Shown here piece by piece: positions 3,801 to 36,592 of a DNA stretch of 64,000 nucleotides. Source of the stretch: a virus. Taxonomy: Duplodnaviria > Caudoviricetes. The notes beneath the pieces were generated by a model. It ran no database searches, was not told the DNA's origin, and worked only from the letters and a program-made list of their open reading frames with translations. A program made the position numbers and the translations under genes. Each line of letters opens with the position of its first letter. Position 1 is the stretch's first letter. Where the stretch lies: the IMG/VR virus record IMGVR_UViG_3300028886_000035, positions 217,187-281,186 of that record. One strand, written 5' to 3'.

Positions 3801-6590
3801 TATTTTATTCATTTTCTCACCTCCATTATATTTTATTTTAGCATTAATAAGTCTTAACACGGTATTACCACTATCCATTTAGGATTTAGGTTCTCTTACG
3901 AAGTCGATTAAAACTTCTACCGTTTTCACAATATGTTTCTTACTGATTAAAGTAAGCCCCATTTATCTAGGGAAGATGCTCGTCTCGCCATGTCCTAATC
4001 CTGCTTCTTGTGCAAGCAGTAAATGCTTCATAGCTAAACGTCCTTCTTCAGACGTATCTAACCCAAAATTTAAGGAACTAAATGGCACTTGAGAGCCAGC
4101 TCTCGAATTATGAACAAAAATACAATTAGATGTTAAGAAAGTCTCATTGTCTGCAACAGACATATCATAAACATATTCTTCTTCACTATTACTTTCCGTT
4201 ACTTTTTCAATAAATAATGGATATATATGTGAAGCAGGAATGAATTTATTATCATCAATTGCTTTTGTGTCAATAATTTCTTTTTTTACACGATTAAATT
4301 TTGGTTTCCTACCATCAATATTACGACTTAATAAATTCTTCAAAAAATCAAAATCATAATAAATATATTCTGCTCGTACATTATTTTGATTTAAATCTTT
4401 CAAATTCAAACGATTTGCAGTATTAGAATTAAAACTAATATCATATCCATTATATGTTCCATAAGACGTTTTCCTGTTATATGTATTGTGAATATGAGAC
4501 ATTTCATTCATTGACAAAATCATTAATTGAATTTGAGAACGTAACGTTTCTGAAACAGTTGTAGCCCCAATATATGTTGGTTTTATACTACCATCACATT
4601 TAAAATACCCTTCCAAAAATGCAGATTGAACTTCTTTTGTTCCAAACATAATTTGCATTGGAATTTTTTTCTCATGTGCATTTCTACCGAAATAATATTT
4701 AAATGCGTCCGACCAAACTTTACCAACATTAAATCTTATATCCTTTGGTTTACCATTAGGCATAGAATATTTATTATATGTTACTTTTTCATTATAGCAT
4801 TCTTTCATTAATGATAACAATTCTTGTTCTTTAGTTTCATCACAAGTGGTAAAGCATAATTGACTATCACCAACAATAGAACCTTCTGCAACATAATACC
4901 CTGCCAATTTACCAAAAGAAGGATTTACTACAATATGATTTTCTGTATAATTTTGTTTTGTACGTGAATGGAATTTATCTAAACTAATATCATTTTTCAC
5001 ATTAAAAACAAAATTTCTTGGCATTAATACATTTGGTACACTTTCAGGATAATCTTCAGCAATTTTACCTGCGTTATTAAGATACATTACTTTATGATTG
5101 TCTGTTGTCGTAACTGATGCTCCTGATGTTGTATGAATTGTAATCAATCTACGATGATTATTTTTTCTTTCAATATCAGTAATATCTTTTAATTCTGCTA
5201 CACCTGTATTTTGATTTAATGAAATAGCCTGATAACGACCTTTTTCATAAATCTCATGTAGTTTACCAATTTGCATTACTTTTAATTCTTCTTCTTGTTT
5301 ATCATAAACAAAAATTGTTGAAGAATATGGTAAACAATGCATCGAATTTAGATTGAAAATAACGCTTTCCATAGCTTGATGTGTTTCTTCTTCTACACGC
5401 TTACAAGCCAGCTTATAAGCATTTTTAAATAGCTTATTTAATTCTTTATCATCTGTTAGTTTATCAATGTTTTTATCATTTTTATACGTTGGATATTCGT
5501 TCTGTTTTTGTTTCAAAATCTCGTCTACAGTATCTTCTGATACATCAGAAACCATAGCAAGGTTTTTAGCACATTCCTCAAATTCTTTCTTAAAAGAACG
5601 TCTTACACCTTCTGCCATAGCTCTATCAAAGTCCTGAATTGATTGTCCACCAAACATGTTATTCTGCGAAGATTGCAACACGATGCAAGCTAAACTTGCA
5701 GCAGAACGAATACTTTGCGGTTCTCTAATATATGAGCTACCAATTTTAAAACCGTCTTTAAATGTCTTTTGTAAATCCACCTGGAGGCAGTTGAATGTTA
5801 GCTCTGAAAAATCCTTGTCCTCTCACAGTAGACAGTTGTCTATTGCAGATTGACTATATCATCTAAGATAGGCACTTCCACATATTTTTAACATATATGT
5901 ACTCCATAAATGGATAGTCGATTAACTTAATTTACAAAAAATGTAAATGTTAGCACAGGATTCTACTTATATAAAGTCATTCCCTGTTAGCACAATTTCT
6001 AAATGTCATTTCCTACATTTCCTATACGTAAATTGTACACCTGATATTTTATCAGTTCACCTATTTTTTTATCCACAATAAGATTCATGGATATGAATAT
6101 ATCCTGCTCTATGAGCATCAATATATCTCTTCGGAATAATGTAATTATCATTAAAGAAATTACTTACTGTTGTCCCATAAATTAACATTGAACCCATTGG
6201 TTCATCTGATTGAATATTAGCATTACTACGTTTGTAATCTGATTCTTCACCAGATTGAAATGTAATATCCATCATTTTTTTCATAAGTTCTTCATGTGTA
6301 TCACGAATTTTTGCGTGTTCCGAACGATAAATAATATACGATTTAGCAGTATGTTCCCAATTTGACTTCATGAGAACATTTTCCACTTCGTCTTGAATAC
6401 TTTCTACTGAAGGTGCTTTTACATCTTCAAATTTTTCTTCAATCTGACTTACCATCCCCCAAATAATCGAATTATTCATTCTCTTATCTTTGGAATCATT
6501 GTTAGCTTTCTTAATCGCATTAAATATCTTATGCGAATCGTAGTCAACAACTTTTCCATTACGTTTTCTTACTTTTTGCAAGTGATTCAC
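835..6590 (-). CDS. nrdD: Anaerobic ribonucleoside-triphosphate reductase. Exons 6590-6087, 5819-3969, 2977-2873, 2613-2537, 1747-835; about 739 aa after intron and intein removal
   Basis: ATP cone. Joined exons restore IHIH|DKDF..NC, NSMH|SRAGSQVPFSS, IFP|ITIF, RLFP|NF and ATM|GCRT. ATPAES, YFTNS and two CxxC motifs present. Confidence 0.95.
1748..2536 (-). mobile_element. Group I intron 4 of nrdD (carries HNH ORF)
   Basis: Splits ATG as AT|G; ends in G; ACGACTA/ATAGTC P7-type motifs. Confidence 0.9.
1877..2425 (-). CDS. Intron-encoded NUMOD4-HNH endonuclease
   Basis: WKEIKGY..YLISNFG, HRLVA, VNHIDGNKLN...NLEW...N. Confidence 0.9.
   Translation of the reverse strand: MQELWKEIKGYNGRYLISNFGQVKNKDGRLLIGDKNNCGYRRVCLSNPHKRFFIHRLVAYYFCNPPINYSTLVVNHIDGNKLNCRYDNLEWCTRSENDKHAFKNGLRKVHKNHYKTTWCPIIIYSDKDRNNVIREFDERKQFADYYDKSYLSVDGIIKRGYFIYKNKKFYVSTYRKTIKHIY
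2614..2872 (-). mobile_element. Group I intron 3 of nrdD (ORF-less, paralog of intron 2)
   Basis: Inserted after TTCCCT; ends in G before AAT TTT; core nearly identical to intron 2. Confidence 0.9.
2978..3968 (-). mobile_element. Group I intron 2 of nrdD (carries endonuclease ORF)
   Basis: Inserted after TTCCCT; ends in G before ATA ACT; CCCU/GGGG P1 and GACTA/TAGTC P7. Confidence 0.9.
3120..3812 (-). CDS. Intron-encoded HNH-like (His-Me finger) homing endonuclease
   Basis: WRNMLSRCY..YGG.GVTVC.RW..F..F..D, LDKD, VYS.DTC; SD GGAGGTG before MNKIF. Confidence 0.75.
   Translation of the reverse strand: MNKIFKTNTGLEYKINYDYIKNGNHYYEIEFLRTHSKRTVLKQALNQGCIKDLFYPTLYGIGYMGNATSKMNKRACTLWRNMLSRCYNSHNKKDFSSYGGLGVTVCNRWHCFEYFLEDLSKIDGYNEKEFNDGILCLDKDIKQKGLLPSQKVYSLDTCMFISNEINIKYRNTEQYSKHFIAISPDNDLMIIHGIVHFCKIYNFSPGSVKLRLDKKLFKPYHGWNFFSINN
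4107..5336 (-). mobile_element. Intein (410 aa) with LAGLIDADG endonuclease in NrdD
   Basis: Starts CLPYS, block B TTDNH, LAGYYVAEG and FLEGYFKCDG, ends VHN followed by S. Confidence 0.95.
5820..6086 (-). mobile_element. Group I intron 1 of nrdD (ORF-less)
   Basis: Interrupts CAT|GAC (IHIH|D); terminal G; AATCCTGTGCTAA and GACTA/TAGTC motifs. Confidence 0.9.
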
Positions 6591-15017: not shown

Positions 15018-15223
15018 TGATTACCTCTCCTTACATACAATAACCATCCAACTATTTACAGTTTATCATATATAAATTAATTTGTCAATGATTTTTGTTT
15101 ATCCTAATAACCATATCCCCATTAGAAATAATACTATCTGTAATATAGTCTAATCTCATTTGACCAACATATTGATATGGAATTTTTAATATTTCAAAGT
15201 TTTCAAATACAATGTGCATTTCT

Positions 15224-15397
15224 TTAATTTTCATCATTAACACCTTGTAAAGATAATAGGAAAACTCCAAATGTAATAAACATATATGCCAATACATATA
15301 TTACCATTTGCATAAACCCGCAGAAATACCATCCAAAGCCAACAATTAACCAAAAAATAATTAGCCACATTAATACTAAAATTACCAACCAATTCAT
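15224..15397 (-). CDS. Small membrane protein
   Basis: Starts MNWLV; two TM segments. Confidence 0.5.
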   Translation of the reverse strand: MNWLVILVLMWLIIFWLIVGFGWYFCGFMQMVIYVLAYMFITFGVFLLSLQGVNDEN

Positions 15398-15429
15398 ATT
15401 ACAAACCTTCTTTCCAATATATATAGAAA

Positions 15430-15938
15430 AATGGATAACAATTACCAAAACTTTTATGAAAGGAGAAATAAAAGTTATATACTTATACAAGTACTTTGAT
15501 AATTCGTTATCCACAAAAGAACCTTTTGTATGTTTTATTTTATTTGTATCCCGCATACTGCGTCAAGCACCTTGAAAAGTTCTTTTACACATTGGAACAA
15601 GAACTGTTTAAAAGAATGTTTTTATATCCTATAATAATCCAAAACGTATTCTGACATTATCGTTTAACAGTAAAAACGCCAATCCTTACTGTTTCATCAA
15701 CGTATTTATATATCGCTATCTATAAATACCGTCCTTTGGCAAGAACTAAAAAGATAGGGAAACTCTTTTTATTGATGAATAGTCTTTTGTGTTTAGACTA
15801 TCTATAAATTATCAAAATATAAAAACTTTAATTCTTTAGGGATTTCTTATTCTCGTTTATTCCCTTCATACTAATATTCACCGTTTGCATAAATTCCCTA
15901 AGTGAATACAGGCACTTATCTGGGTTTCTCACCCACTT
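15430..15938 (-). ncRNA. Candidate large structured ncRNA (~510 nt) downstream of tnpB
   Basis: Own TTGACA-N18-TATAAT promoter; many hairpins; no credible ORF. Confidence 0.6.
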
Positions 15939-15988
15939 CTCTATTATAACATAGATTAAACGGTTTTGTCAATCATTTTCTTGTATTT

Positions 15989-17077
15989 TTAATCAATAAC
16001 TCTTACTCTACGTGTATGCAATTTTAAATTTTGCTTGCAATTTTTCCATTGAATAATTTTCTTTTTCTTATTATCAATGTTATCTACATATTTTCGGAAA
16101 AAATTATAAGCAGCATTAATATCTGCATTTACATAATTATTATCTTTTGTTCGATATAATCCACGATGTACGCGCCTACCAAAGTGTTTATCTCTTTGCT
16201 TTACACTTTCATCATCATAAAAAGAGCATTGTGAACTATAATCTTCTGCAATACAAGAATACTCCCATTTATTTACTTTGCAAATATGCTTAATGTTTTT
16301 TACAAACAAAGACATACCAAATGCAGTAATATTGTCTCTTTTATAATCCATTCCCATAAATGTATGATATGACAATGATTTTTTTGTTGGAATTTTACCC
16401 ATCAAAATAAAATCTATACCGTTATCAATACAGTATTGTTTTACAATATTTGATGCTTTTTCACAATATGTTCTCAAATAATGATAATGATTGTGCTTTA
16501 TTTTATCAATCTTTTTGGATTCAGAATTAATTCCTTGTAAAAAATTAATTTTCTTTAAACAATAATAATCATATGCTTTTAATTTTTTACCATCGACTAA
16601 AAACGAATCTCCGAAACTTGTCACACAAGCTCCCAAATTATCTACCCCAACATCTATAGCAATCATATGATGTTTTCCTGATTTGCCAATCTCCAAGTCT
16701 AAATAATATTCCTTATTTTTGTACATAATCCATGCAGACAAAATATTTATTTTGTTAGTATCAATATCAAATGGAATAATTAAATTATTTAATTCAATCT
16801 GATTATTCGTAAACCTATTTGGATTGATATAGATATTACGATACCTGTATTTAACCTCTTTATCTGCCTTTGTAGCTCGTTTAATCGTTCTTATGGCACA
16901 TTCTTTATGCAATCGTTCAGGAACAAAATCTAAGTACCTTACAGACGTTTGAAAAGGCTCTTTATGACTTTGTTTCCATAGATATGCTTCATGATATAAT
17001 TGCGAATTATCTAAAAGCATATTCTTAATTTGTTGTTTTTGATAATTATCCAAATTTAATTTAAAAAGTTTATGCAA
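15989..17077 (-). CDS. tnpB: TnpB-family RNA-guided nuclease (rearranged RuvC-II clade, no Zn finger)
   Basis: IAIDVGVDNL, AEDYSSQCSF.D, GRR..RGLY, NADINAAYN. Confidence 0.85.
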   Translation of the reverse strand: MHKLFKLNLDNYQKQQIKNMLLDNSQLYHEAYLWKQSHKEPFQTSVRYLDFVPERLHKECAIRTIKRATKADKEVKYRYRNIYINPNRFTNNQIELNNLIIPFDIDTNKINILSAWIMYKNKEYYLDLEIGKSGKHHMIAIDVGVDNLGACVTSFGDSFLVDGKKLKAYDYYCLKKINFLQGINSESKKIDKIKHNHYHYLRTYCEKASNIVKQYCIDNGIDFILMGKIPTKKSLSYHTFMGMDYKRDNITAFGMSLFVKNIKHICKVNKWEYSCIAEDYSSQCSFYDDESVKQRDKHFGRRVHRGLYRTKDNNYVNADINAAYNFFRKYVDNIDNKKKKIIQWKNCKQNLKLHTRRVRVID

Positions 17078-17130
17078 AATATTTCACCACCTTACTTTTT
17101 AGTTTATCATATATATGCAATGCTGTAAAC

Positions 17131-17237
17131 AAAAAAAGTGGTTAAAGAAGTTCATCTTTAACCATAAATAAAATTATAAGTCAAATAAAAAGGAAGTTTG
17201 AAAAGAAATACTTTTAGAGAGAAGTTTTTCTTTTCAT
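17131..17237 (-). ncRNA. Candidate ~105-nt sRNA
   Basis: Promoter at 17271-17243, internal hairpin, terminator TGGTTAAAG/CTTTAACCA followed by a U-tract. Confidence 0.5.
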
Positions 17238-17274
17238 CTTCTATTATATCAAGCCCACATCTATTTGTCAAGAC

Positions 17275-17775
17275 CTAGAAACCATATTTTTCACACAAAG
17301 GTTCTAAATCATATCTTGCACTTTTTCCTTTAGAAAAATTAACTGCTTTTATTATTGGCATATTTTGTTTCAATATTTGATATACACCTAATCTTTTTAT
17401 ACGCTTACCTAAAATAGCATGAGCGTTATTCTGTTCTGCAAGCATTGTTACATAAAGAATACAAAATAATTTAGCTACAACTAAAAAATCTTTCTTATTG
17501 TACGTTTCTGCTATATTACGAATAGCTAACCAATGCTGACTATTGATATTTATGCCAACCATATTATAAACTAAAATAAAATCATTATATACTTTATCTA
17601 TTCCATATTTATCTGATAATTGTTTCAAGCAAGTAAAATAATCTATATCCTTTATTGCATAGTTATTTAGTTTAAACATAAACCCATCGAATTTTCCTCT
17701 GCATTGATAAATAAATGAACCGTCAGGAAATCTCAATATCGGTTTTTGTGATTGACCTATCTGAATTTCTTCCAA
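17275..17775 (-). CDS. Conserved hypothetical protein (DUF7004-like)
   Basis: F.DGS...G.FD, VY.DF..VY, M.AE.N...LGKRIKRLG..Q.L, C..YGF. Confidence 0.6.
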   Translation of the reverse strand: MEEIQIGQSQKPILRFPDGSFIYQCRGKFDGFMFKLNNYAIKDIDYFTCLKQLSDKYGIDKVYNDFILVYNMVGININSQHWLAIRNIAETYNKKDFLVVAKLFCILYVTMLAEQNNAHAILGKRIKRLGVYQILKQNMPIIKAVNFSKGKSARYDLEPLCEKYGF

Positions 17776-17826
17776 TATACTTCAACTCCTTTATTTTTAT
17801 TATAAGATGCTATTGGTTAAAATGTC

Positions 17827-17871
17827 AAATGATAATTACATAAATGATAATTACATAAATGATAATTACAT
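17827..17871. repeat. Perfect tandem repeat, 3 x AAATGATAATTACAT
   Basis: Read directly from the sequence. Confidence 0.9.
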
Positions 17872-18133: not shown

Positions 18134-18184
18134 ATATATATTATACAACAATTCTTTGTATTTGTCAAATAATTATTTTATAAA

Positions 18185-18435: not shown

Positions 18436-18510
18436 TGGAGCTAACGGTAGGACTTGAACCTACAACCGATTCATTACAAATGAATTGCGCTACCTTTGCG
18501 CCACGTCAGC
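18436..18510 (-). tRNA. tRNA-Thr(TGT)
   Basis: Cloverleaf, loop TTTGTAA, CCA. Confidence 0.9.
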
Positions 18511-18511
18511 A

Positions 18512-18586
18512 TGGCGGGGGTACTTAGAATTGAACTAAGATATGTCGGGTCAAAGCCGACCGCTCTCGCCATTGAGCTATACCCCT
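18512..18586 (-). tRNA. tRNA-Gln(TTG)
   Basis: Loop CTTTGAC, CCA. Confidence 0.9.
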
Positions 18587-18594
18587 AATTTAAT

Positions 18595-18671
18595 TGGAGG
18601 TGGTACACAGATTTGAACTGTGGAATAACGGTTTTGCAGACCGTCGCCTTAATCCACTTGGCTATACCACC
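18595..18671 (-). tRNA. tRNA-Cys(GCA)
   Basis: Loop CTGCAAA, U73, CCA. Confidence 0.9.
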
Positions 18672-18723
18672 ATTTCCTTTAACAATTATATTGTACCACT
18701 TAATACAATGTTTGTCAAGGATT

Positions 18724-18801
18724 TTATTAGTTTTTGTTTCCCTAATTTTATGTTAGGTACTTATGTCAATCACCACGAAAAGGTACTAATAATAGATTGA
18801 C
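18724..18801 (-). ncRNA. HDV-like theta ribozyme at the tRNA-Gly 3' end
   Basis: P1 GTCAATC/GATTGAC, P2 TTATTAGT/ACTAATAA, P3 ACC/GGT, L3 TTTTCGT, P4, J4/2 CAAAA. Confidence 0.85.
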
Positions 18802-18874
18802 GGAGCGGTATGTGAGAATCGAACTCACAATTTCAACTTGGAAGGATGATGTTTTACCATTAAACCAATACCGC
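18802..18874 (-). tRNA. tRNA-Gly(TCC); ends CC|G at the ribozyme cut site
   Basis: Loop CTTCCAA. Confidence 0.9.
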
Positions 18875-18878
18875 ATTA

Positions 18879-18952
18879 TGGGTGCAGGAAGTAGACTCGA
18901 ACTACTAACGAAAGTTTATGAGACTTCCATGTTACCTTTACAATATCCTGCA
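18879..18952 (-). tRNA. tRNA-Met/Ile2(CAT)
   Basis: Loop CTCATAA, CCA; lacks the three G-C anticodon-stem pairs of initiators. Confidence 0.85.
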
Positions 18953-18954
18953 TA

Positions 18955-19030
18955 TGGCTCACCAGGTAGGAGTCGAACCTACGACCCAATGATTAATAGT
19001 CATTTGTCCCCCCGACTGGACTGCTGGTGA
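18955..19030 (-). tRNA. tRNA-Asn with unusual ATT anticodon
   Basis: Stem AATGA/TCATT, loop CTATTAA, G73, CCA. Confidence 0.8.
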
Positions 19031-19031
19031 A

Positions 19032-19118
19032 TGGTGGGCAGAGTTGGATTTGAACCAACGTAGACATAAAGCCACCAGATTTACAGTCTGGCTCCTTTAG
19101 CCACTCGGACACCTGCCC
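19032..19118 (-). tRNA. tRNA-Tyr(GTA)
   Basis: Loop CTGTAAA, long variable arm, CCA. Confidence 0.9.
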
Positions 19119-19129
19119 ATATTTTAGTT

Positions 19130-19202
19130 TTATCAATTTTAGTTTCCCTTATATCAGGTACTTATGTTATCCACCCCGTAAAGGTATTGATAATAGGATA
19201 AC
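19130..19202 (-). ncRNA. HDV-like theta ribozyme at the tRNA-Glu 3' end
   Basis: P1 GTTATCC/GGATAAC starts right after CCA; P2 TTATCAAT/ATTGATAA; L3 TTTACGG; J4/2 CTAAA. Confidence 0.85.
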
Positions 19203-19278
19203 TGGTGACTCCTGCCGGGCTCGAACCGACGATGACAGGATGAAAACCTGTTGTCTTAACCAACTTGACTAAGGAGCC
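19203..19278 (-). tRNA. tRNA-Glu(TTC)
   Basis: Loop TTTTCAT, CCA. Confidence 0.9.
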
Positions 19279-19347
19279 AGATAAATGATTTTTAATCATT
19301 TATAAATTTTTCATCATTATAAGATTTTCACCTTATTTTGATGATAA

Positions 19348-19424
19348 TGGTCCGCCCCCTGGGACTTGAACCCAGAACCTATCGTGTATAAGACGCTTGC
19401 TTCAACCAATTGAGCTTCGGGCGG
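19348..19424 (-). tRNA. tRNA-Ile(TAT)
   Basis: Loop CTTATAC, A73, CCA; some stem mismatches. Confidence 0.8.
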
Positions 19425-19454
19425 ATTTATAATAAATTTTATATTATCAACATA

Positions 19455-19994
19455 TTATACATATTTAAATGTATATCCATAATAAGATTTTCGTACACCT
19501 TTTAAAATTCTATATACACTTTGTTCTGCACTATGATAACAAACCCCTAAATTCTTACATAAAAAATCTCTTATCATAGTAGCTATACAATCATAATGTG
19601 CTACAAGGTTTCCTGTTTTATAATTATATACATCAATCTTTTTTGCAATAGGATTTTTACTGCCAATAAAATTTCTTAATGTACTAACACTATGTTGCAT
19701 ATTTTCTTTCGCAGTAACCCATTCCAAATTACAAGCTCTATTATCAGTTTTTATTCCATTGATATGATTTACTTGTAATCCTTCTTTATATCCTTTACAA
19801 AACATATAAGCAACAAGTCTATGTATAAAAACAATTTTTGTCTTTTTATTTACATAAAAATTGACATATAAATATCCCTTACCACTAGTAAATACCTTTA
19901 ATAGTTTATCATTTAAATCTGTGATAATTCCATTATCGTATATTTTATAATTTGGATATTTTTCATTAATCTTATACATAATTCCATTACCCAT
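19455..19994 (-). CDS. Free-standing HNH endonuclease in the tRNA cluster
   Basis: FIHRLVAY.F, VNHINGIKTDNRACNLEWVT..EN. Confidence 0.9.
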   Translation of the reverse strand: MGNGIMYKINEKYPNYKIYDNGIITDLNDKLLKVFTSGKGYLYVNFYVNKKTKIVFIHRLVAYMFCKGYKEGLQVNHINGIKTDNRACNLEWVTAKENMQHSVSTLRNFIGSKNPIAKKIDVYNYKTGNLVAHYDCIATMIRDFLCKNLGVCYHSAEQSVYRILKGVRKSYYGYTFKYV

Positions 19995-20005
19995 TTTAAT
20001 TGTCT

Positions 20006-20079
20006 TATATCAGTTTTAGTTTCTCTTTTTCAGATACTTATGATAACTACCACGTAAAGGTACTGATATATAAGTTATC
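20006..20079 (-). ncRNA. HDV-like theta ribozyme at the tRNA-His 3' end
   Basis: P1 GATAACT/AGTTATC, P2 TATATCAGT/ACTGATATA, L3 TTTACGT, J4/2 CTAAA. Confidence 0.85.
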
Positions 20080-20080
20080 T

Positions 20081-20157
20081 TGGGGTGGTTGACAGGATTT
20101 GAACCTGCAATAACTAGAGCCACAATCTAGCGCGTTAACCATTTCGCCACAACCAAC
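20081..20157 (-). tRNA. tRNA-His(GTG)
   Basis: Loop TTGTGGC, G-1/C73, CCA. Confidence 0.9.
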
Positions 20158-20161
20158 ATAA

Positions 20162-20248
20162 TGGTGCGAATGGAGGGGGTCGAACCCTCACGGTATTACT
20201 ACCCTGGGATTTTAAGTCCCATACGTCTGCCAATTCCGTCACACTCGC
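20162..20248 (-). tRNA. tRNA-Leu(TAA)
   Basis: Loop CTTAAAA, variable arm, A73, CCA. Confidence 0.9.
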
Positions 20249-20300
20249 ACTATACAAAGCTAAGTATATTTAAAATGAATGATGCTCTTGAAAACAAAGA

Positions 20301-20540
20301 TTATATAACACAAACATCTTTTATCCAAAGATTCATTAGTTCTTTTACAAAACTTTTGTCGTTATTAGAATCCATGGTTTCTGAGTCAGCAAACCAACCA
20401 TCTTTATTTTTATATATTGTATACTCTCCAAATCCAATATCGCTGGACCATTTAAAAATAATTCCAGAATGCCTGTCATTATTAAATGGAATAACCTCTT
20501 CGATTGATAAATGGATTGAGTCTACTGGATAATTTCTCAT
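20301..20540 (-). CDS. Hypothetical protein between the duplicated tRNA-Leu genes
   Basis: MRNYPV start with a G-rich SD. Confidence 0.6.
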   Translation of the reverse strand: MRNYPVDSIHLSIEEVIPFNNDRHSGIIFKWSSDIGFGEYTIYKNKDGWFADSETMDSNNDKSFVKELMNLWIKDVCVI

Positions 20541-20567
20541 TAAATCCCCCCAAGAAAAATAATAATT

Positions 20568-20654
20568 TGGCGCGAATGGAGAGAATTGAACCCTCACGGT
20601 ATTGCCACCCTAGGATTTTAAGTTCCATGCGTCTGCCGATTCCGCCACACTCGC
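20568..20654 (-). tRNA. tRNA-Leu(TAA), diverged duplicate
   Basis: Homologous to 20162-20248; G73; mismatched anticodon stem. Confidence 0.7.
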
Positions 20655-20853
20655 ATTATTTGATTTTCTCTTTTGTAAGATTTATCTCAACCTTACTTCT
20701 TTATTATATCAAATCAATCGCTATCTGTCAAGTGCTTTCTTGATTTATTTTTTTTAAGAAGTAAAATATCTTTATCAACCTTACTCATTTATTGTATCAT
20801 GTATCCAATCATTTGTCAAGCACAAAATTTTTTAAATACATAAAAAATCTAAA

Positions 20854-20931
20854 TGGTGACACAGGTGAGACTCGAACTCACGACCGTAGACTTAGAAGGT
20901 CTATGCACTAATCCAACTGTGCTACTGCGCC
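20854..20931 (-). tRNA. tRNA-Arg(TCT)
   Basis: Loop CTTCTAA, CCA. Confidence 0.9.
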
Positions 20932-20988: not shown

Positions 20989-21290
20989 TTGACACTCCCC
21001 ATGCCTAAAGGCAGGGAATTCCTAATTCATTGACCGCAGCATCATGTGATTTAATCACATGATATATAGTTATGATAGTTATACTATATATTTTTATGTC
21101 TTACGCAATCTCCATAGGCTTAGTTTTATACTGATTCCGTAAGCCCTACGGTACAGTTTTTATATTGTTTAAGCTACTGTTTGTTATTTTGTTTATATTA
21201 TAATACAAAAGTTGGTGCTTGTCAATACTTAATTTAGTTCTCGCGCCTTATATCCCCAGCCCTAAAGGGCGGGGTTTTACGGCGCTTTCG
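20989..21290 (-). mobile_element. Non-autonomous IS200/IS605 mini-element retaining a promoter and a TnpB reRNA-like scaffold
   Basis: LE AAACCCCGCCCTTTAGGGCTGGGG after TTTAT; ACCGTAGGGCTTACGG..GCCTATGGAG; RE CCTGCCTTTAGGCATGGGGAGTGTCAA. Confidence 0.75.
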
Positions 21291-26341: not shown

Positions 26342-26370
26342 ATTATAACAAATATATATTCAATTGTCAA
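26342..26370 (-). promoter_or_regulatory. sigmaA promoter for the copy 4 / Leu / copy 3 / Lys operon
   Basis: Perfect TTGACA-N17-TATAAT. Confidence 0.75.
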
Positions 26371-36383: not shown

Positions 36384-36495
36384 TTGACATCCCACCACCT
36401 AAAGAGGTGTGGGATTCCTATTTCTTTGACCGTAGCGTATGCGGTGAAACCGCATGAGGTATGGCGTAGCCATACCTTTTTACGTCTTACACAAC
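36384..36495 (-). mobile_element. IS605 right end with the 3' part of a TnpB reRNA (homolog of 20989-21110)
   Basis: Shared GTAAGAC.TAAAAA, two covarying hairpins, GCT.CGGTCAA.GAA..TAGGAAT.CC..CTTTAGG..GGGA.TGTCAA. Confidence 0.7.
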
Positions 36496-36592
36496 ATTAT
36501 AACACAAAATGGGAGGAATTTCACCTCCCATTCACATTAAAATTTTATTAGTTAAAATTAGTTGCCATTTTTTATCTCCATTGAATAATATG

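Follow-up and report, generated by a model that had tools for sequence, protein, structure and literature searches.

ROOL and GOLLD are large, many-junction RNAs of bacteria and phages, of unknown function, that are often found near tRNA genes and in prophages (PMC5737381; cryo-EM preprint 10.1101/2024.12.08.627333); ROOL, which averages 581 nt, was originally discovered in data from cow rumen (Weinberg et al. 2017, PMC5737381). The phage-borne RNA described here resembles both in its length (~515 nt), its multi-junction architecture and its position near a tRNA array, a resemblance of kind and not of membership. It appears to represent a new family of large phage RNA, found so far in two related phage lineages, which matches neither of the two Rfam models.

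Typical TnpB guide scaffolds are ~100-250 nt long. The RNA usually overlaps the end of the tnpB ORF and extends to the right end of the element, and its free 3' guide differs from copy to copy and corresponds to the DNA that flanks this end. Like the omega RNAs or reRNAs of TnpB (IS200/IS605-IS607; ISDra2; ISFba1, PDB 8iaz), the large RNA lies directly 3' of a tnpB-like gene and on the same strand, and the TnpB concerned is immobilised and conserved, as in exapted TnpB systems (Altae-Tran et al. 2023, PMC10691335). Unlike these guide RNAs, however, it exceeds their usual length 3-5 times, is transcribed from a promoter of its own that lies past the stop codon, without any ORF overlap, and has neither the AAGAAUC-hairpin-GAG-UGUCAA end nor a variable guide. 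Canonical scaffolds are present elsewhere in the phage.

Results

Genomic setting and the neighbouring TnpB

The window, i.e., the whole stretch of 64,000 nt analysed here, is the final 64 kb of a 281-kb IMG/VR phage record (98% complete) and has a G+C content of ~28%. A tRNA array occupies positions 18439-20931, 2.5 kb away from the large RNA, and a scan of the whole window against Rfam at gathering scores returned tRNAs only. The features of the locus are collected in Table 1. The loci compared with it were L003 and L004, which are near-identical to the window, and L005, L014 and L104, which share its gene order and encode a TnpB that is 55% identical. Proteins encoded around the RNA belong to no informative family and the 57-aa peptide has no family match; a syntenic homologue of 59 aa follows the RNA in L005, L014 and L104, and RNA and peptide gene adjoin in 5/5 loci.

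The tnpB product matches Pfam OrfB_IS605 with E 8.6e-9, and its predicted fold (pLDDT 80) matches, at full length, ISFba1 TnpB (8iaz, E 9e-13), Cas12f, Fanzor2 and ISDra2 TnpB. The residues D142, E278 and D319 are invariant; the Glu occupies the alternative 'EDYSSQ' position and the zinc-finger Cys residues are missing, two features described for several TnpB branches, some of them virus-specific (PMC10691335). The neighbouring protein is, on these grounds, a genuine TnpB. Its gene is present in a single copy in the phage and occupies the same locus in two lineages, with dS ~1.6 and dN/dS ~0.2 relative to L014, from which it follows that this TnpB is immobilised and functional; 'domesticated TnpB', the term used in the original prediction, is a reasonable description.

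A profile search of 1.8 billion representatives delimited a tiny TnpB clade, consisting of the window cluster, a 35%-identical cluster ('C3') and a 225-aa mini form, beyond which matches drop to E 1e-37. This clade comprises four lineages, of which C3 (loci fetched: L006, L007 and L016-L023) and the mini form (L015) occur in other neighbourhoods; apart from tnpB, no gene of the window lineage's surroundings recurs around the gene in C3 or L015, nor do these two have any other in common. The mini TnpB (L015:136-813) starts at RuvC-I with its own SD, keeps the D/E/D residues and is missing WED/REC; a perfect promoter lies 85 nt past its stop codon, with 60 nt of transcript before the contig breaks off. 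The C3-lineage tnpB of L006 is preceded, at a distance of ~800 nt, by the gene for a possibly IscB-like protein of 501 aa (L006:252-1757), for which Pfam gives RRXRR and weak HNH matches.

Table 1. Coordinates of the large RNA, its structural parts and the associated genes and scaffolds (window numbering unless another source is given).
Feature	Position	Strand	Remarks
DUF7004 gene	17775-17275	-	followed by a 197-nt spacer, then tnpB
tnpB-like gene, 362 aa	15989..17077	-	Pfam OrfB_IS605; neighbour of the large RNA
Gene-free stretch, 591 nt	15988-15398	-	between tnpB and the 57-aa peptide gene
Sigma-70 promoter of the large RNA	15943..15972	-	TTGACA, 18 nt, TATAAT; TG-extended -10; 12/12 consensus
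Large structured non-coding RNA, ~515 nt	15425..15937	-	putative ends, from promoter and U-run
Domain I	15868..15935	-	hairpins P1 (15935-15921) and P2 (15915-15868)
Domain II	15589..15865	-	multi-branched core, closed by long-range P3, P4 and P5
P3	15852-15844/15603-15595	-	
P4	15837-15831/15617-15611	-	
P5	15826-15805/15641-15618	-	
Hairpin with invariant loop UGUCAGA	15642..15665	-	loop 15656-15650; within Domain II
Domain III	15515..15586	-	stem AAAAGAACUUU/AAGGUUCUUUU around two small hairpins (CAAG/CUUG, CGCA/UGCG)
Domain IV	15426..15514	-	terminal stem (15514-15495/15449-15431), inner hairpins, invariant CU-rich loop, U-run (15430-15426)
57-aa hydrophobic peptide gene	15224..15397	-	first gene after the RNA; SD ~20 nt past the U-run
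Stand-alone TnpB guide-RNA-type scaffold	20989..21225	-	promoter and scaffold, ending ...GGGGAGUGUCAA
Second stand-alone scaffold	36384..36500	-	ending ...GGUGGUGGGAUGUCAA; weak R1 match, 12.6 bits, E 2
Third scaffold, outside the window	genome C1:203215-203361 = L105	-	R1 match; UGUCAA end

Promoter, coding potential and extent of the RNA

Both promoter hexamers (TTGACA at 15972-15967, TATAAT at 15948-15943) are found exactly where they had been predicted, with a 12/12 match. The promoter had also been placed 17 nt past the tnpB stop; it does lie just past the stop codon (15991-15989), with 16 nt between the stop and the -35 box. The homologous RNA of L005 and L014 has the same promoter. Perfect consensus promoters (TTGACA-N16-18-TATAAT) occur 13 times in the window, 12 of them on the minus strand, compared with 0.25 expected by chance, an excess that identifies them as genuine promoters of the phage, used by the host polymerase. 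Other such sites include 17799-17828, 18140-18168, 20703-20731 and 26342-26370, and several of them precede RNA genes, not proteins. An interpretation of TTGACAA as a relic of a UGUCAA element end was rejected, TTGACAAA being the consensus -35 box of this phage, as found in the 13 perfect promoters.

The region had been described as ORF-poor, and no conserved ORF is indeed present in 15398-15988: a 110-aa frame starting at 15556 and a 34-aa GTG frame are both broken in the L005 lineage. Host RNA polymerase would start ~7 nt past the -10 box, near 15937, and the transcript would end, at least partly, at the long terminal stem and U-run, ~15425, with read-through probably supplying the 57-aa gene and the genes behind it.

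Fold and domain anatomy

A strongly structured region of ~510 nt had been anticipated, and its extent here is ~515 nt. The 543 nt behind the promoter fold with an MFE of -132.2 kcal/mol vs. -100.2 +/- 6.0 for 100 shuffles (z -5.37), and the L005 homologue folds at z -4.98. The complementary (+) strand reaches only z -2.67, and this asymmetry, with which the many G.U pairs of the RNA are consistent, therefore assigns the RNA to the tnpB (minus) strand. The predicted fold contains at least 15 helices and multi-stem junctions, organized in four domains.

In Domain I, P1 reads UGGGU/ACCCA in the window vs. UGAGUUG/CAACUUA in L005, and P2 reads UAUUCAC/GUGAAUA vs. UAUCUAU/AUAGAUA, with three double changes as read by eye and four, by automated count, in a longer 11-pair version of P2, the loop of which holds ~100 extra nt in L005, L014 and L104. 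In the Domain II core, P3 and P4 lie within the two longest invariant blocks (15853-15828 and 15617-15593), where the lineages are identical bar one R position; P5 shows 4-5 compensatory pairs, and the inner hairpins at 15801-15779, 15778-15694 (a three-way junction) and 15693-15666 also covary, as does the stem beneath the UGUCAGA loop (AAACG/CGUUU in the window vs. AACCA/UGGUU in L005). Compensatory changes in Domain III comprise C-G to U-A and CGCA/UGCG to CGCU/AGCG. The Domain IV stem is GGAUAACGAAUUA/UAAUUGUUAUCC in the window vs. AUGAGUAAUCAUUA/UAAUGGUUGCUCAU in L005, with two G.U pairs that form on the minus strand only, and its CU-rich invariant loop reads UUUCUCCUUUC. This stem and the U-run together make a possible atypical terminator, which a simple terminator scan did not call because the loop is too long.

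As a separate observation, L003 carries an 8-nt tandem duplication (GCAGTATG) at ~4275-4290 (window ~15560), in the region of the CGCA/UGCG hairpin of Domain III, as a tolerated natural variant.

Among the pairings of the original prediction, GGGT/ACCC, TATTCAC/GTGAATA and TAGTCT/AGACTA are present both in the MFE structure and in the homologue's own fold. CATCAA/TTGATG and the helices that it was proposed to enclose (GTATTTATA/TATAAATAC, AACAGTAA/TTACTGTT, AAAAGAAC/GTTCTTTT and TGGATAAC/GTTATCCA) all appear in the MFE structure, and the homologue's fold matches all of them except TGGATAAC/GTTATCCA. The proposed TTAGGGA/TCCCTAA pairing is not supported: relatives have TTAGAGA, an uncompensated G-to-A change, and an invariant hairpin nearby, AGGGA/UCCCU, is a local competitor for these bases. 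The pseudoknot suggested between TATTCAC/GTGAATA and this stem is likewise unsupported, the stem lacking compensation in relatives. The loop singled out as 'anti-SD', CU-rich TTTCTCCTTTC at 15468-15458, proved invariant in both lineages and, as claimed, no IS right-end hairpin is found in the window.

Conservation across lineages

The same RNA is present in the L005/L014/L104 lineage. Between the lineages it differs at 26-28% of aligned positions, compared with 52-69% of the synonymous sites of the DUF7004 gene, tnpB, the peptide gene and a 119-aa gene (dS 0.9-1.8). MFE folds computed independently for the window and L005 have 120-132 of 173 pairs in common (within 2-3 alignment columns), as against 0-17 with shuffled L005 sequences and a mean of 11-13 (maximum 45) for window RNAs in which equally many substitutions had been placed at random. 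The matched pairs include 67 unchanged, 15 with one-sided and 33 with double changes. Imposing the window MFE structure on a raw five-sequence MAFFT alignment leaves 79% of cells paired, vs. 46-52% with slid partners, and gives 14 pairs with double changes, vs. 1-5. Homologues of the RNA do covary, with compensatory changes in 7 of the 9 matched helix groups of the window RNA, and the SNPs that separate the window from L003 and L004 fall in loops or give G.U pairs. The fold is real and has been kept by selection across two phage lineages, each compensatory change being a single event between only two diverged lineages.

Searches beyond these loci returned no homologue of the RNA in GenBank phages (by DNA), no match in IMG/VR for two conserved RNA blocks and no further homologues in IMG/VR by protein, clade alignment or four DNA patterns. 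The large RNA is single copy in the phage and has been seen solely beside this TnpB, all of its carriers being syntenic relatives. A 12-mer-seeded search for self-targets of the RNA in the phage genome found none above chance, the longest exact match being 17 nt and AT-rich.

Comparison with known RNA families

A search of the locus (15100-17400) and of the homologous loci against the 4227 families of Rfam at E<=10 assigned the large RNA to no family. At this threshold it matched neither the ROOL nor the GOLLD model, nor any riboswitch, leader, intron or ribozyme family; Intron_gpI was equally silent, and the RNA is intergenic and not within a host gene. The original prediction had offered two possibilities, that a domesticated TnpB has a partner RNA of unusual size or that the RNA is a large phage ncRNA in its own right, of the size class of ROOL and GOLLD. 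The latter fits the evidence best, but the RNA is a member of neither family.

Guide-RNA scaffolds of TnpB relatives and of this phage

The guide-RNA end of the TnpB family was defined from 80 fetched bacterial TnpB relatives. TGTCAA lies 9-52 nt after the stop codon in ~30 of the 80 (~2 expected by chance) and is preceded by CTTAAGAATC and a hairpin, then GAG; beyond TGTCAA all similarity is lost, so that the right end must lie here and the guide begin. The resulting guide-RNA end, ...AAGAAUC-hairpin-GAG-UGUCAA, is seen in 29 relatives, and the covariance model built on it (R1) is weak, with only 14 pairs, and reaches few relatives at E<1. With filters off, R1 did not match 15421-15937, the L005 RNA or the C3 loci at E<=10.

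R1 does match three short, promoter-driven stand-alone scaffolds in this phage, two in the window (the second of them weakly) and one outside. The first (20989-21195; 23.8 bits, E 0.027) has a perfectly matched terminal hairpin and UGUCAA and stands behind a TTGACA-17-TATAAT promoter (21225-21197); the second aligns with the first and with the L104 insert described below. These solo UGUCAA scaffolds may be trans guides or mobile scaffold-only elements, and the first is a candidate rival partner for the phage's TnpB. The solo scaffolds have no similarity to the 3' coding region of the window's tnpB and no significant similarity to the window RNA.

At L104, the TnpB of which is 99% identical to that of L005, a 210-nt insert (L104:2041-2250) sits between the -35 and -10 boxes of the large RNA's promoter, separating TTGACAAAA from GTTTGTGTTATATAAT. 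It has a left hairpin, its own TTGACT-17-TATAAT promoter and the end GGAATCCCACGAC-TGAA-GTCGTTGGAGGATGTCAA, reading GGAAUCCCACGAC...GUCGUUGGAGGAUGUCAA, with a canonical UGUCAA end. A scaffold is thus located between tnpB and the large RNA, and the start of the RNA is therefore the scaffold's flank, i.e., the position of a guide. In the uninterrupted allele of L005 and L014, TTAC stands immediately before the would-be target, and we infer only that this would suit a TTAC-type adjacent motif.

The C3 lineage

Right after the stop codon, the C3 tnpB has a canonical-looking hairpin (GCAAATC-CCTCC-TTTT-GGAG-TGATAG), and the ~270-nt folded region that follows is therefore a flank. Homology between this region and the window RNA had been suspected, since both have a hairpin with a UGUCAGA loop and some motifs are collinear, but was rejected after nhmmer and Smith-Waterman comparisons against shuffles gave it no support (p 0.07-0.98), a shared 7-mer being expected by chance; a look-alike CCGU/ACGG hairpin in GC-rich C3 relatives likewise has no statistical support for homology. 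The sharp end of C3 homology after ...UCCCYUUUG was considered as a scaffold/guide boundary, an interpretation weakened by the upstream context that all C3 loci share and by L006, in which the next bases already form a hairpin. A pattern of the C3 RNA end had no match in GTDB genomes.

Two natural variants of this lineage were also observed. Five samples (L018-L022, compared with L016 and L023) have a clean ~320-nt deletion by which the folded region, its terminator and one half of the terminal hairpin are lost and the ORF is spared, and L006 has a 290-nt GC-rich insert (L006:3760-4052) in the loop of the UGUCAGA hairpin and a different 3' flank.

Discussion

The reading that we favour, and to which we would give about an even chance, is that the ~515-nt RNA is the phage's own structured RNA gene and not a guide (omega/re) RNA, with tnpB as a neighbour and with partial read-through into the genes behind. 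The adjacency of tnpB would arise since TnpB-type cassettes and solo guide scaffolds settle in phage promoters. With low confidence, we suggest that the RNA may act as a stable trans-acting RNA or as an RNA-protein particle, in which the invariant P3/P4 junction, the UGUCAGA loop and the CU-rich loop would make contacts, perhaps with Shine-Dalgarno sequences or with the translation machinery; the CU-rich loop repeats 8 nt of the 3' end of 16S rRNA of the Firmicutes type. The invariant single-stranded motifs are the best leads to the function of the RNA. This phage is already rich in RNA genes, and large, elaborately folded RNAs (ROOL, GOLLD, OLE) are rare, so that an RNA kept under selection behind a consensus promoter provides a further entry point to them. 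It also illustrates that a conserved folded RNA behind tnpB is not automatically its guide: guide-type scaffolds are found elsewhere in this phage and, in L104, between the gene and the RNA.

Several observations nevertheless weigh against this reading. In position and strand the RNA is exactly what would be expected of a TnpB guide RNA, and the window TnpB, which lacks a canonical guide-RNA end, must depend on some RNA, since purifying selection maintains it. The silence of R1 is a weak argument, given the fast divergence of guide RNAs and the few relatives that R1 reaches at E<1; the RNA is known only from syntenic relatives; and its 3' end is not a textbook terminator, which leaves room for a purely cis-acting leader.

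A first alternative is that the RNA is a giant, derived partner RNA of an immobilised TnpB, which would have lost the usual gene-overlapping guide end and become separately promoted, with a fixed or internal guide. We regard this as unlikely. It is favoured by a promoter that begins 16 nt past the tnpB stop, by the persistence of TnpB and RNA together over dS ~1.6 with a TnpB dN/dS of ~0.2, and by a window tnpB 3' end that has neither a canonical terminal hairpin nor UGUCAA. Non-coding DNA follows the gene in other lineages as well (~270 nt, folded, in C3; a promoter 85 nt past the stop in L015), and the RNA motifs UAAGAAAUCCC and UGUCAGA resemble, in the same order, the relatives' UAAGAAUCCC...UGUCAA. 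Nevertheless, the partner role failed four tests (scaffold, guide tail, clade linkage and L104), even though the domestication of TnpB assumed with it is reasonable. The RNA has neither covariance-model nor sequence similarity to the family guide RNA or to the phage's own scaffolds. It has no free variable 3' segment, being conserved and paired up to the U-run, and the bases after UGUCAGA and after UUCUUUUG sit in covarying helices. The linkage to the TnpB clade that was looked for did not emerge, no RNA homologue being detected downstream of the C3 or L015 TnpBs, the latter of which is readable for 60 nt only. The C3 terminal hairpin makes the folded region there a flank, which natural C3 variants lose while keeping the ORF; at L104 a canonical scaffold stands between tnpB and the RNA; and the 12-mer-seeded matches that the RNA has elsewhere in the phage stay within chance level. 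A partner RNA retains some weight in our assessment because guide RNAs diverge quickly and the 14-pair R1 is weak. A particular form of it, which we consider doubtful, would make the RNA a subunit of a compact, zinc-finger-less TnpB in an RNA-rich particle used by jumbo phages, as an oversized scaffold with its own promoter and a fixed or internal guide; if a partner RNA at all, it would be the largest TnpB-associated RNA known to us.

A further alternative, which we judge to be rather improbable, is that the RNA serves in cis as a long 5' leader and controls read-through or translation of the operon behind it (the gene for the 57-aa membrane peptide and those that follow) via alternative pairings, the terminal stem and the U-run. 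No other good promoter was found between the RNA and the 57-aa gene, the SD of which lies close behind the U-run, and the RNA stands beside the peptide gene at every one of the five loci. Three UUCUU and three AAGAA segments permit alternative helices, both possible partners of AAAAGAAC covary with its C/U change, and the RNA ends in what may be an atypical terminator, all of which would suit such a leader. On the other hand, ~15 conserved helices in four domains go far beyond the need of known leaders of this kind, and the RNA matches no riboswitch or leader family. As read from the sequences, the CU-rich loop is a poor match for the SD behind it in both lineages. From the -10 box of the large RNA it is 546 nt to the first genuine start codon, whereas protein-gene promoters of the same consensus class have leaders of 23-67 nt.

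It is very improbable that the region is a mobile element or intron in decay (IS end, IStron or group I intron) that no longer has a function: the phage does have TnpB-type scaffolds and the RNA region is AT-rich like its surroundings, but the RNA evolves ~2x slower than synonymous sites and with compensatory changes, has a perfect promoter, matches no intron or ribozyme family at E<=10 and is single copy.

A short unit upstream of tnpB

A further perfect promoter (TTGACA-17-TATAAT at 17271-17243, minus strand) lies between the DUF7004 gene and tnpB. A possible role of the ~100-nt sRNA behind it (17236-17135) as a crRNA-like partner of the large RNA was rejected, the duplex energy being no better than that of shuffles. 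The ~100 nt after the promoter carry a hairpin on their 5' side and, at 17164-17139, a clean intrinsic terminator, and L014 and L104 have the same architecture in the DUF7004-tnpB spacer with a different sequence. This unit (17135-17271, minus strand) could be a small RNA gene or an attenuator ahead of tnpB.
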